This document shows, in pieces, positions 2,569 through 58,569 of a DNA stretch of 64,000 bases (position 1 is the stretch's first letter; each line of letters opens with the position of its first letter). The notes below the pieces were generated by a model. It saw nothing but the letters and a program-made list of their open reading frames with translations. It was not told the origin of the DNA and did not search any database. The DNA comes from a virus, in IMG/VR virus record IMGVR_UViG_3300032116_015770; one strand, 5' to 3'. Position numbers and translations under genes: made by a program.

Positions 2569-3252
2569 ATGAAAGTAGAATTTAATTCCCTGCATTGGGA
2601 CAACGTCAATAAAGATATGTTAGATGCTCATAAGTCAGTTATGAAGCATTTTGACATACCTGTCAATTACCATAACCTTAATTGGAATCATGGCACCTGG
2701 ATGCAGGTGATTCATAGTGAATCTAAATCAGATGTAGTAGTAACTATTGAACCAGATTGTGTTATACTAGATAAGCAAAAAGTTTTGGACATTATTAGAT
2801 ACGCGTATAAGAATAATACGTTTGTAGGTATCGCACAAGTATCCAATCATATACCACCTAAAAGTCACATCTATGCAGCACCAGGTTTCTACGTGATGCC
2901 TACCAAACTTTATAATGAATTAAACTGCCCTTCATTTACAGAAACATATCGATCAGATACAGCAGAAGAAATAAGTTATATTGCAGAAGAAAAAGGCATT
3001 CGTTACCGGGCATTACGACCAACTTACTTTGAAGGGGAACCTGGTGAGGGGTTATGGCCCTTAAGTAACCTTGGTTACTACGGTATTGGTACAGTCTTTG
3101 AAGATACCGTCTATCATCTTTATCAGTCACGTATGGCTCAAAATATTGAGTTATTTGTTAAGCGATGTAGTGAAATTATTAACAATACCTTCTCAACCGA
3201 ACATATGACATCTTCAACAACGTTTAACTACAAAGGAAAAATAGTTAGATGA
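2569..3252 (+). CDS. putative glycosyltransferase (GT-A-like)
   Basis: DVVVTIEPDC DxD-like motif; first gene of the GT cluster; strong SD. Confidence 0.55.
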   Translation: MKVEFNSLHWDNVNKDMLDAHKSVMKHFDIPVNYHNLNWNHGTWMQVIHSESKSDVVVTIEPDCVILDKQKVLDIIRYAYKNNTFVGIAQVSNHIPPKSHIYAAPGFYVMPTKLYNELNCPSFTETYRSDTAEEISYIAEEKGIRYRALRPTYFEGEPGEGLWPLSNLGYYGIGTVFEDTVYHLYQSRMAQNIELFVKRCSEIINNTFSTEHMTSSTTFNYKGKIVR

Positions 3253-4199
3253 AAATTTTATTTCATGCTAATACATTAAACTACAGGGGTACAACTGTTG
3301 CCATAACAGACTATGCTCGCTACAATCAGGAAATATTTGGTAATGAATCTGTCATAGCTTACAATCATAGCCTAGGTTATGAGAAAGATATGGGTTCAGA
3401 GCAAGCAGTTATTGATCGTCTTAAAAAAGACTTTAATGTAATTGGGTATAGAGAAGGCGATTTAGAAGCTATTATTTCTAAAGAGCAAATTGATCTCGCT
3501 TACTTTATTCGTTCAGGGCAAAAAGAACCTTTACCAACTAACTGTAAGACTGCAGTACATTCGGTATTTCAGTTTAATCAACCTCATGGAGATAGGTATG
3601 CGTATATCTCTAAATGGTTATCTGATGAGATGTCACAGGGAGAGATACCTTACGTACCACATATTGTTAAGTTACCAGAACCTAATGGGGACTTTAAAGG
3701 GTACTTAGATATTCCTAAAGATAAAATAGTGATTGGTAGGTATGGTGGTTACTTTACATTTGATATTGAGTCTGTTAGAGATAGTATTCTCAAATTAGTT
3801 AATACTGACGACCGTTATGTATTTTTATTTGTAGGTACCCAGCCTTTTTCAGATCACCCTAACATTAAGTTCATTAACGAAATTCACGATCTACAGAAGA
3901 AAGCTAATTTCATTAATACATGTGATGCAATGATACATGCAAGATATAGAGGTGAGTCTTTTGGACTATCTATTGCAGAATTTCTGTATCTAAACAAACC
4001 GGTAATTGCATGGAATGGTGGTCATGACAAAAACCATTTAGATATGTTAAAAAATAGCGATACCTTATATAATAATGAGGATGACTTCTTTTATATCTTA
4101 AAAAATATTAAAGACATTAAACAAGACTGGACTCAAAGAGTAGCAGAGTTTAGTCCAGACAAGGTGATGAAAAAATTTAATGAGGTATTTTTATGCTAG
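3249..4199 (+). CDS. GT-B (GT4-like) glycosyltransferase
   Basis: GESFGLSIAEF Ex7E motif, KPVIA; N-terminal KILFH..RGT. Confidence 0.85.
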   Translation: MKILFHANTLNYRGTTVAITDYARYNQEIFGNESVIAYNHSLGYEKDMGSEQAVIDRLKKDFNVIGYREGDLEAIISKEQIDLAYFIRSGQKEPLPTNCKTAVHSVFQFNQPHGDRYAYISKWLSDEMSQGEIPYVPHIVKLPEPNGDFKGYLDIPKDKIVIGRYGGYFTFDIESVRDSILKLVNTDDRYVFLFVGTQPFSDHPNIKFINEIHDLQKKANFINTCDAMIHARYRGESFGLSIAEFLYLNKPVIAWNGGHDKNHLDMLKNSDTLYNNEDDFFYILKNIKDIKQDWTQRVAEFSPDKVMKKFNEVFLC

Positions 4200-45862: not shown

Positions 45863-46157
45863 AAAAATTAAAGAAATTATTGAAGAAGAAGACCCTAATC
45901 TAAAGCTAAGAATCTTCGTACAAGGTGGAGGTTGCTCTGGGTTTCAGTATGGATTTACATTAGAAGAACAACCTGCAGCGGAAGATGATTTTATCTTTGA
46001 AAGAGATGGAGTAGGTGTTATAGTAGACTCTATGTCTATGCAATACTTAACAGAAGCAGAAATTGATTACGAAAAATCTATTATGGGTGCAGAGTTTAAA
46101 ATAAAAAATCCTAACGTCAAAGCAACGTGTGGATGTGGTTCAAGTTTTACAGTTTAG
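45834..46157 (+). CDS. erpA: A-type Fe-S carrier ErpA/IscA
   Basis: [27 protein letters not shown]. Confidence 0.93.
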
Positions 46158-46164
46158 GAAAACA

Positions 46165-47154
46165 ATGACAAAAACAAAAAGTAAACTAACAGACGAAAGA
46201 AACTTCTTTAGACCATTTTCATATCCTTGGGCATACGATGCTTGGTTAAAGCACGAACAGAGCCATTGGTTACATACAGAAGTACCAATGCTGGAAGATG
46301 TTAAGGATTGGAAGAAAAAACTATCACCATCGGAAAAACAATTTCTTACTCATATCTTCCGTTTCTTTACACAAGGAGATATCGATGTAGCAGGTGGTTA
46401 TGTTAAAAACTATTTACCTTACTTCCCGCAGCCTGAAGTAAGAATGATGCTTGCAGGGTTTGCAGCGAGAGAAGCTCTACATATTGCTGCGTACTCACAT
46501 CTTATTGAAACACTTGGGATGCCTGATACCACATACAATGAATTTTTTCAGTATGCAGAAATGAGAGACAAACATGATTACATTCTTGATATTAGCTCAC
46601 AGAATGGCAATGCTGCTAGTACTGCTACTCATATTGCAGTATTCTCTGCTTTCACCGAAGGGATGCAACTATTTAGTTCCTTTATCATGCTACTTAACTT
46701 CCCTAGGCACGGTAAAATGAAAGGCATGGGTCAGATTGTCACCTGGTCCATTGTAGATGAGACTCAACATGCAGAGTCCATGATTAAATTGTTCCGTACC
46801 TATGTAGAAGAAAACAGAGAGATCTGGAACGATGATCTAAAATCTAGAATTTATACTATTGCAGAAAAAATGGTTGAGCTTGAAGATCGGTTTATTGATT
46901 TAGCATTCTCTATGGGTGATATGCCTGATTTAACTGCTAGTGATGTTAAAACATATATTCGTTATATTGCCGATCGTAGACTTATTTCTCTAGGGTTGAA
47001 AGGTATCTTTAAAGTTAAAAAGAATCCTCTACCTTGGGTTGAAGAAATGATCAATGCACCAACACATACTAACTTCTTTGAAAACAGAGCGACCGACTAT
47101 GCCAAAGGCGCCTTGTCAGGAGACTGGACTGATGTATGGGGTAAAGCGGCTTAA
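46165..47154 (+). CDS. nrdB: class Ia ribonucleotide reductase beta
   Basis: FFTQGD, EALHIAAY, EGMQLFSSF, DETQH, NFFENRATDY. Confidence 0.96.
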   Translation: MTKTKSKLTDERNFFRPFSYPWAYDAWLKHEQSHWLHTEVPMLEDVKDWKKKLSPSEKQFLTHIFRFFTQGDIDVAGGYVKNYLPYFPQPEVRMMLAGFAAREALHIAAYSHLIETLGMPDTTYNEFFQYAEMRDKHDYILDISSQNGNAASTATHIAVFSAFTEGMQLFSSFIMLLNFPRHGKMKGMGQIVTWSIVDETQHAESMIKLFRTYVEENREIWNDDLKSRIYTIAEKMVELEDRFIDLAFSMGDMPDLTASDVKTYIRYIADRRLISLGLKGIFKVKKNPLPWVEEMINAPTHTNFFENRATDYAKGALSGDWTDVWGKAA

Positions 47155-57445: not shown

Positions 57446-57474
57446 TTGATTTTCTGTTGCCTTGACGTTAAAAT
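57446..57474 (+). promoter_or_regulatory. sigma70-type promoter
   Basis: TTGATT-17 nt-TAAAAT. Confidence 0.55.
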
Positions 57475-57501: not shown

Positions 57502-57693
57502 ATGATAATTTGCTCCTGTAGAAATATACGTGAATCAGACTTTCCAGATAAAGATAAATTAATTTTACGTCTGTATGAGGATGACGCGCAATGTAGGGTT
57601 TGTTTAGAGAATATCGATAGGTACAAGAGTAAACCGAATACGTTTATGGGTGCTTGGGCTTACTATAGTTTAAACAAAGAGTTTAGTAAATAA
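57502..57693 (+). CDS. Bfd-like [2Fe-2S] small protein
   Basis: MIICSC...QCRVC (CxC...CxxC). Confidence 0.6.
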   Translation: MIICSCRNIRESDFPDKDKLILRLYEDDAQCRVCLENIDRYKSKPNTFMGAWAYYSLNKEFSK

Positions 57694-57704
57694 ATATTTT
57701 TAAT

Positions 57705-58054
57705 TGTTGTATGATGCAAACTGAAAAGGGTTCTGGACGCGGGTTCGACTCCCGCCTGGTCCACCAAAAGGAGATTGTATGCCAGTAGATATGTACTACT
57801 ATACTGAGAGTGAATGGAATCGTTTAGGGTGTGGACCTCTTCCACCTGAACGAGATATTCGTAATAAGGTAAAGTCTTCTTTTGAGGGGCCAGACATGGT
57901 TTCGACAGGGTCAAGAGTAGGGGAGTGGACAACACGTCAGGCGATCGACGTTAATGAAGCAAATAAGTAATCGCAAATGACGAGTACTACGCTCTAGCAG
58001 CTTAAATTGCTAGATGGGGTTTCGGTAGCTGTCCTTATTACCCAATCAGCTACC
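57705..58054 (+). ncRNA. ssrA: circularly permuted two-piece tmRNA: acceptor piece ~57705-57766, intervening 57767-57886, coding piece 57887-~58054
   Basis: T-arm GCGGGTTCGACTCCCGC + CTGGTCC-A-CCA precedes GGGCCAG (G3.U70 pair); tag ANDEYYALAA* at 57973-58005; outer ends approximate. Confidence 0.93.
57779..57970 (+). CDS. ORF starting in the tmRNA intervening segment
   Basis: AAAGGAG SD; reads through the tmRNA mature 5' end. Confidence 0.5.
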   Translation: MPVDMYYYTESEWNRLGCGPLPPERDIRNKVKSSFEGPDMVSTGSRVGEWTTRQAIDVNEANK

Positions 58055-58076
58055 TTAATGATTTTCAGTACGGTAG

Positions 58077-58084
58077 TATAAATA
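58077..58084 (+). promoter_or_regulatory. T4-type late promoter upstream of pqqA
   Basis: Exact intergenic TATAAATA. Confidence 0.7.
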
Positions 58085-58160
58085 ATATTTTAGTAGATTC
58101 ACTTCATATGTTCAATAGATAATATGGACCGGCAATAGTGCCGCCATAAAGGAGAAAAAT

Positions 58161-58235
58161 ATGAAGTGGACTACACCTGCAGCTCAAGATATGCGTTTTG
58201 GTTTTGAAATTACCATGTATATCGCTAATCGATAA
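58161..58235 (+). CDS. pqqA: PQQ precursor peptide PqqA (24 aa, not in ORF track)
   Basis: MKWTTPAAQDMRFGFEITMYIANR with W..P, R.GFE and E-x3-Y core; AAAGGAG SD. Confidence 0.95.
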   Translation: MKWTTPAAQDMRFGFEITMYIANR

Positions 58236-58296
58236 ATAAATTGAGTTGGTAGATCTCTAAAACTACCATCACACAAACACACAAAAGGAGATGTAA

Positions 58297-58569
58297 ATGA
58301 GTAATATGTCACCATTCGAGATCCGTCTCGAACTTCTTAAGATGGCCAAGGAAATGCTTACTGAAGATTATTACAGTAAGCGAGATCAAGTTTCCAACGA
58401 CTGGCAAGTTAAAGTAGAAAACGCTCGCCACGCCGGTGCAACACCACCTGATCATCCAGGCTTTCCATCATACCCCACTGAAACAGATATTATTAATAAA
58501 GCGCAAGCTTTGAATGGTTTTGTTTCTCAACTTCCAGATGTAAAAGTTACTAAGAAATCTACCGCTTAG
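58297..58569 (+). CDS. conserved T4-like phage protein
   Basis: PFEIRLELLKMAKEML, II.KA..LN.FVS; AAAGGAG SD with CA-rich leader. Confidence 0.8.
   Translation: MSNMSPFEIRLELLKMAKEMLTEDYYSKRDQVSNDWQVKVENARHAGATPPDHPGFPSYPTETDIINKAQALNGFVSQLPDVKVTKKSTA

Follow-up and report, generated by a model that had tools for sequence, protein, structure and literature searches.

In dual-function RNAs such as SgrS/SgrT and RNAIII/delta-haemolysin, a single transcript is both a functional RNA, or the precursor of one, and an mRNA, a property that the locus described here would share. A second kind of likeness is offered by brfA, whose mRNA is, like that of arfA, a non-stop mRNA regulated by trans-translation. 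The present locus would resemble this pair only if the intervening segment (IVS) excised from its tmRNA precursor were translated, in which case a nuclease would make the stop-less message and tmRNA would tag the product. Unlike arfA, however, it encodes a protein without sequence similarity to ArfA, and the comparative evidence favours translation across the cut; moreover, regulator and message would here share one transcript, which is not the case for arfA or brfA. Group I introns with homing-endonuclease ORFs occur in tmRNA genes (PMC11915505), and there, as here, the ORF lies in a removable part of the gene. In contrast to both the dual-function RNAs and the intron ORFs, the ORF at this locus overlaps the mature tmRNA, including the 5’ strand of its acceptor stem. 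Furthermore, unlike the ORFs of homing-endonuclease introns it is not a mobility gene, and its translation and the maturation of the RNA would be mutually exclusive for each molecule.

The closest published analogue that we found is S23p, encoded in the IVS of the 23S rRNA of Coxiella burnetii. According to PMC4990558, the S23p ORF is apparently untranslated in vivo and subject to reductive evolution, and its IVS is excised by RNase III. Both loci have an ORF-bearing spacer, closed by a stem, that is excised from a stable-RNA precursor by a nuclease. Unlike S23p, the ORF here has a strong Shine-Dalgarno (SD) sequence, a dN/dS near 0 and an extension into the mature RNA, and the cut would fall at a tRNA-type RNase P site instead of being made by RNase III.

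Permuted, two-piece tmRNAs themselves have been described, among others from aquatic T4-like phages (RF04321, RF01850 and RF01849), and the tmRNA of this locus shares with them the order of its parts, the CCA end, the G-U pair in the acceptor stem, the tag ORF and the resume codon; the host genome is likewise that of a T4-like phage, with a late-transcription coactivator and gp59 among the neighbours. In the published descriptions consulted the IVS of a permuted tmRNA is a discarded spacer, whereas here it is a protein-coding gene under selection. As contents of an IVS, the 2025 paper on the tmRNA database names no more than a tRNA gene and a repetitive element (PMC11915505), and a full-text search, with incomplete coverage of the literature, found no published coding tmRNA spacer. 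For the OM43 phage Melnitz, a two-piece tmRNA and a glutamine riboswitch have been described with no mention of an IVS ORF (PMC9004378), and its GenBank record (MZ577097.1) places the tmRNA at 45984-46436 without a CDS annotated inside.

A permuted tmRNA with a 120-nt spacer

The window, a 64,000-nt stretch of DNA from IMG/VR record IMGVR_UViG_3300032116_015770, belongs to a T4-like phage genome of 165 kb with terminal repeats, which encodes one permuted two-piece tmRNA as judged by ARAGORN and Rfam. The gene spans 57705-58067, with all of its features on the plus strand, and runs in the order acceptor piece, IVS, coding piece. It scores 139.8 bits against RF04321 (threshold 47) and 137.4 bits against the beta-type model RF01850 (threshold 84), and ARAGORN calls it permuted, as the 3’ tRNA-like half, which ends in CCA, precedes the 5’ half. 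The acceptor piece (57705..57766; Rfam RF04321/RF01850 and ARAGORN) holds the T-arm, the acceptor 3’ strand CUGGUCC, the discriminator A and the CCA at 57764-57766, and ARAGORN delimits its 3’ tRNA domain at 57728-57766. The coding piece (57887..58067; ARAGORN, Rfam) has G57887 as its first base and opens with the 5’ tRNA-like half (57887-57913), the acceptor strand of which, GGGCCAG, pairs with CUGGUCC in a stem that includes the G3-U70 pair. The tag reading frame, ANDEYYALAA*, occupies 57973-58005 (ARAGORN) with GCA 57973 as the resume codon.

Between the two pieces lies the IVS (57767..57886, ARAGORN limits), which would be removed on maturation, and the Rfam consensus models require an insertion of 91-107 nt at this position. 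RNase P is predicted to cut between 57886 and 57887. As the earlier note had stated, the IVS is 120 nt long and begins with AAAGGAG, and ATG 57779 opens a reading frame; both the ARAGORN limits and our own check of the ORF agree with this. Within the IVS lie the SD and the start of that frame, along with its first 36 codons. Neither a riboswitch nor any other RNA family was detected in the IVS by Rfam at a permissive threshold (57600-58300), and this phage genome has no SmpB gene.

The spacer frame is a gene

The frame comprises 63 codons (57779..57970, MPVDMYYYTESEWNRLGCGPLPPER...), starts 12 nt after the CCA behind the SD AAGGAG at 57768-57773, and does cross the RNase P site, as had been claimed, to stop at TAA 57968-57970, 2 nt before the resume codon. 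Exactly 36 codons lie within the IVS, so that the RNase P site falls between two codons. Codons 1-25 (57779..57853) form a conserved core that aligns with the core of stand-alone proteins in other phages. Compared with the diverged relative L002-L006, these 25 codons differ at 16 of 75 nucleotides while all 25 residues are identical; 15 of the 16 differences between this locus (WIN in our alignments) and L002 fall on third codon positions, the remaining one being a CGT/AGA switch between arginine codons, and pS over the core is ~0.99. Against L057, dN/dS is 0.08. Beyond codon 25 the protein diverges between this locus and L002, and pairing with the SD strand is maintained. The SD, the ATG and the spacing between them are invariant across four lineages, including variants P0121-P0126 and loci L057-L061. 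The proposed check by protein-level conservation and dN/dS thus bears out the note’s claim of a protein-coding IVS, as does the existence of stand-alone homologues elsewhere. As such, the frame is, by its pattern of substitution, a real gene under strong purifying selection, and it is the sole copy of its family in the 165-kb genome. In other words, the tmRNA spacer of a lake or marine phage carries a real and strongly conserved small-protein gene.

It might be argued that the ORF is what is left of a neighbouring gene, captured in a rearrangement and now in decay, or that its conservation reflects RNA structure in the IVS. The GNPxIDGKxIKGYN motif with which stand-alone relatives commonly end is indeed missing here, and the S23p ORF in the 23S rRNA IVS of Coxiella, decaying and apparently untranslated (PMC4990558), is a precedent for such a remnant. 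Against this explanation stand an IVS interior that is only weakly structured (z = -1.9), an invariant SD and ATG, an SD-like motif that follows the presence of an ORF (see below), and the same core embedded in unrelated tmRNA lineages. The concentration of changes at third positions with zero residue changes brings it close to refutation, and we consider it very improbable.

The family to which the protein belongs consists of phage proteins of ~55 aa, all hypothetical and without a name, that form 186 clusters at 90% identity; a profile search gave 56 family clusters at 50% identity. Its hallmark is a core motif of 24-25 residues near the N-terminus, [YW]YY[ST]xxEW[NSD]R..G.(L/V)P..R, which is present in the protein of this locus and for which the fuller consensus reads P-V-x-x-Y-Y-Y-[ST]-E-x-E-W-N-R-L-G-C-G-P-L-P-P-E-R. 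Tails vary within this YYY-core family, and the commonest stand-alone subgroup ends in GNPxIDGKxIKGYN. In the alignment, stem- and tmRNA-encoded residues take the place of this C-terminal motif at the present locus; its protein is a minimal family member that consists of the core. Pfam and PHROGs gave zero matches for this peptide and for five other IVS-borne or stand-alone peptides; at E <= 1 Pfam likewise returned nothing for this protein, and similarity to ArfA, BrfA or ArfT was not found. A tblastn search of 50,697 cultured-phage records with the stand-alone protein gave no match, a search for longer or fused relatives found none, and a feature search of the ESM Atlas returned unnamed clusters only. 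An AlphaFold2 model (alignment A1) has two short helices and is of moderate confidence, with a pLDDT of 69 overall and 78-85 over the core.

Family genes always accompany permuted tmRNA genes, either upstream of them or inside the IVS, and do so for both alpha- and beta-type tmRNAs. In most relatives the gene is stand-alone, carries an ordinary stop and lies 230-860 nt upstream of the permuted tmRNA, often directly 3’ of a tRNA (tRNA-Met where ARAGORN assigned a type). Embedded copies occur in beta-type tmRNAs (this locus, L002/L006, L057/58, L059/60, L061, L307 and L382) and in a large alpha-type group (L304, L306, L310-L357, L366 and L368/369), the alpha type being confirmed by RF01849. Because the family is linked exclusively to tmRNA genes, the YYY-core protein is suggested to act with the phage trans-translation system, and we regard the family as a candidate modulator of trans-translation during infection. 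L061 (1501-1662, compared with 57779-57970 here) combines an acceptor piece and IVS identical to those of this locus with a coding piece from another lineage that has a different tag, a hybrid that points to recombination within tmRNA genes by which IVS cassettes are swapped. On a related note, L010 carries three tiny hydrophobic ORFs (3159-3400) between its stand-alone YYY gene and its tmRNA, the last of which, MNQDLSFAIGVVVVAIVFLLIL, encodes a 22-aa membrane peptide resembling the 24-aa peptides that fill the IVS of L082, L126, L159 and others. Small genes thus seem to move between the region just upstream of the tmRNA and the inside of its spacer.

The ribosome-binding site lies in the processing stem

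The earlier note had also proposed that 57765-57776 pairs with 57873-57884, extending the acceptor stem and holding the SD. This pairing is indeed present in the minimum free energy fold of 57756-57895, in which the 7-bp acceptor stem is followed by a 2x2 internal loop and a 12-bp stem between these two strands; the fold has an energy of -53.5 kcal/mol (z = -6.07), and none of 200 shuffles folds as well. The 5’ strand of this basal or processing stem (57765..57776) includes the SD, while the 3’ strand (57873..57884) has the anti-SD-like sequence AGUCUUCUUUUG and also codes for residues 32-35, both strands being assigned by fold and covariation. Across 96 distinct phage IVS, this register is paired in 94.5% of cells compared to 40-50% in shifted registers, positions 3 and 7-12 show several pair types, and a compensatory change from A-U to U-A is seen in L002 and L059. 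The precursors of these phage tmRNAs have the 12-bp stem in common as a generic element. The same does not hold for the SD-like motif in its 5’ strand: 23 of 30 ORF-bearing IVS have it, versus 1 of 35 without an ORF.

Stems that bear an ORF are weaker on average than those that do not (-8.5 versus -12.4 kcal/mol; p = 7e-6, the sequences being non-independent), and they contain more G-U pairs (2.1 versus 0.7 per stem). At -12.1 kcal/mol, the present stem shows no such weakening, and access to its SD may therefore be poor after the RNA has folded. Every IVS ORF reaches at least the 3’ strand, so the stem has to be opened by any ribosome that translates the ORF. Furthermore, because the SD is itself one strand of the processing stem, transit of a ribosome on the one hand, and folding and RNase P cleavage on the other, would be mutually exclusive on any given molecule. 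The structure therefore suggests that translation and tmRNA maturation compete, as the earlier note had put forward.

Which RNA is translated

So which RNA is the messenger? The ~35 distinct IVS-borne copies come from at least six tmRNA lineages, alpha- as well as beta-type. With the recombinant L061 as the one exception, their frame is open past the RNase P site and ends at a stop by the resume codon, although the coding piece is conserved as RNA, so that the open frame may be partly inherited and the lineages are not fully independent. Of 28 distinct IVS, 19 have the stop 2 nt ahead of the resume codon, five have it 7-9 nt ahead, and the remaining four have it 11 nt past the codon, in another frame; early stops are absent (0/28). 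The beta-type copies that resemble this locus end 2, 2, 2, 2, 5 and 7 nt before the resume codon. As background, the three frames come as close as 8 nt to the resume codon without a stop in 17, 4 and 3, respectively, of 104 distinct coding pieces (3-16%), and 5 of the 17 are YYY copies themselves. Where unrelated IVS ORFs run on into the coding piece, they meet a stop after only 27-34 nt, except for that of L023 (+58). A stop 2 nt before the resume codon was considered as a design specific to this locus and rejected: the UAA just before the resume codon is kept in these tmRNAs whether or not an ORF reads into it and is a general tmRNA feature, which makes the arrival of the frame at this UAA the informative point.

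A further line of evidence comes from alpha-type relatives. Nine of the 28 distinct IVS, all of them alpha-type, have no ATG, GTG or TTG between the CCA and the core, and in these the frame extends back without a stop across the entire acceptor piece, as far as a GTG that lies 70 nt ahead of the CCA end. In the YYY-bearing relatives L311-L369, of alpha type, an ATAAATA late-promoter-like box lies 5-6 nt before this conserved GTG and the frame is open to the resume codon, which suggests that the alpha-type YYY mRNA is leaderless or near-leaderless and would consist of the whole 5’ part of the pre-tmRNA. An upstream late promoter was also considered as a shared feature and dropped, as the ATAAATA found before alpha-type genes is not conserved in the beta-type relatives. 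As their IVS offers no start, the protein of these alpha-type relatives could be read from the uncut precursor alone. The open frame past the cut and the spacers that lack a start together make the precursor the likely mRNA, rather than the excised stop-less piece. We therefore consider it probable that the unprocessed pre-tmRNA acts as the mRNA of the small-protein gene in the spacer, with a 63-aa product at this locus.

We picture the order of events as follows. A ribosome would load on the AAGGAG and AUG upon their exit from the polymerase, ~100 nt before the complementary strand is made, and would then move on across the 3’ stem strand and the RNase P site and along the 5’ tRNA-like half. 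It would terminate at the UAA before the resume codon and release a 63-aa protein, the last 27 residues of which would be dictated by the tmRNA sequence. Once free of ribosomes, the RNA would close its 12-bp stem and acceptor stem and so sequester the SD, and RNase P and the 3’ processing enzymes would then release the two tmRNA pieces. Each precursor would thus be a brief messenger first and tmRNA afterwards: one transcript that serves as mRNA and then as ribosome-rescue RNA, with a ribosome-binding site inside its processing helix. If so, the locus would show, in compact and natural form, how translation of an RNA and its maturation can exclude each other.

The earlier note favoured a different messenger, namely the excised 120-nt IVS, which would be a stop-less mini-mRNA tagged by its own tmRNA. 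Spelled out, such a model has RNase P cleavage leave the message without a stop codon and ribosomes stall at its 3’ end, and the 36-aa peptide would be tagged with ANDEYYALAA by the phage or host tmRNA for proteolysis. The peptide would accumulate only at low rescue capacity, by analogy with the ArfA sensor. This reading gains from the codon boundary lying exactly at the RNase P site, from the lack of any in-frame IVS stop in four aligned beta-type lineages, the terminal TGAG or TGAT of which (TGCT in L059/L060) has its TGA out of frame, and from the conserved part of the protein being wholly within the IVS; the arfA mRNA is moreover a known non-stop mRNA controlled by trans-translation (PMC10107115). 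However, the frame is open far past the cut in nearly all relatives of both types, and the nine spacers without a start codon could not serve as such messages at all. The excised piece would furthermore retain both strands of the stem, so that its SD would stay paired. Stand-alone family members end in ordinary stops, and 16 of the 30 ORF-bearing IVS, from other families, have their own stop inside the IVS. The claim of a self-tagged 36-aa peptide from an excised mini-mRNA thus finds no support among the relatives, and we judge it unlikely. A feedback sensor of ribosome-rescue capacity, one of the purposes that the note had offered, is conceivable and is not the best fit.

A combination of the two, in which the protein is made both by co-transcriptional translation of the precursor and by translation of the non-stop IVS, with the 25-residue core mattering and the tail irrelevant, strikes us as hardly more probable. 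The core is the only part conserved at the protein level and the tails are unrelated between tmRNA types, so that protein-level constraint on the tail cannot be shown; L061, where the frame stops after 53 codons, tolerates a shorter tail and, as a natural variant with an identical IVS, indicates that the full tail is not indispensable. An irrelevant tail does, however, predict that early stops in the coding piece are as common as in other IVS ORFs, and they are nearly absent. We also consider, with considerable doubt, that the YYY-core protein acts in cis as a partner dedicated to the phage tmRNA. It would be made on the pre-tmRNA in a round of translation that is obligatory for assembling or controlling a phage-specific trans-translation system, and would bind or license the same RNA or recruit host SmpB or proteases. 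An arbitrary tail of ~30 residues would fill the exit tunnel, and the core would therefore emerge as the ribosome reaches the resume codon.

Coding spacers are common in phage tmRNAs

An unbiased pattern scan of viral contigs yielded 118 permuted tmRNAs; 105 of their IVS are distinct and measure 25-248 nt. In 30 of the 65 IVS with a length of 80 nt or more, an ATG located 5-20 nt 3’ of the CCA opens at least 24 codons, where shuffling predicts 4.0 +/- 2.0 such ORFs with a maximum of 11 (500 shuffles). SD-led ORFs are thus common in phage tmRNA spacers. The present locus displays the features of this coding class in full, having an SD-like motif in the stem, an ATG within 9-15 nt of the CCA, an ORF that runs beyond the stem’s 3’ strand and purifying selection at the protein level. 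The IVS ORFs represent many unrelated families, several of which are under purifying selection, with a dN/dS of 0.14 for L091/L103 and 0.16 for L023/L113. Those 16 of 30 that end inside the IVS often do so at the TGA of a conserved TGAT before the RNase P site, from which it follows that a stop-less excised piece is not the general design. Several unrelated IVS ORFs (L161, L101, L104, L091/L103 and L125/L140/L150) reach up to 73 codons in an IVS of 248 nt, and include a CxxC...HxC mini-protein and a conserved pair of 49-50 aa. When genome contigs were searched with the acceptor-end pattern, most hits were tRNAs, and the one permuted tmRNA of a bacterium, from Microvirga, has a non-coding IVS of 91 nt; the search thus yielded neither a usable bacterial control nor a clue to the host.

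Melnitz, the cultured phage mentioned above, has a 142-nt IVS (L303 1565-1706) with GGAG and an ATG that opens a 54-codon frame, MFKWLSKTRLVV..., reaching 42 nt into the coding piece. Its glutamine riboswitch lies 3’ of the tmRNA (L303 1886-1934) and not in the IVS. Having the same architecture with a different ORF, Melnitz makes the general model testable in culture.

tmRNA is known from textbooks as a stable RNA. The spacer of its two-piece form, so far regarded as waste, thus routinely serves phages as a gene slot, and the YYY family would additionally use the flanking mature tmRNA sequence as coding sequence. Nested genes, dual-function RNAs and permuted tmRNAs are each of a known kind; what is new is a tmRNA-linked small-protein family with a frame threaded through the precursor up to the resume codon. 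As ORFs inside RNA genes are skipped by gene callers and annotators, this class of phage small proteins goes unannotated.

Neighbouring genes and promoters

Upstream of the tmRNA gene, and ending ~15 nt or less from it, is a 63-aa ORF (57502-57693, +) with four cysteines (CSC...CRVC), which has no NCBIfam match and is preceded by a sigma-70-like promoter (57446-57474); the tmRNA may be co-transcribed with it. Just 3’ of the tmRNA, a stand-alone gene for a 24-aa PqqA precursor peptide (58161-58235, +) scores 39.1 bits against TIGR02107 (cut-off 20) and has a T4-type late promoter box, TATAAATA, ahead of it at 58077-58084. No pqqB-E genes were seen nearby, and a stand-alone PqqA gene hints at a methylotroph or another PQQ-using host. 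Some beta-type tmRNAs (L010 at 3424-3452, L016 and L007) are preceded by near-consensus sigma-70 promoters (TTGACA-17-TATAAT); compared to the late-type boxes of the alpha-type genes, this suggests that the timing of tmRNA expression may differ between lineages.
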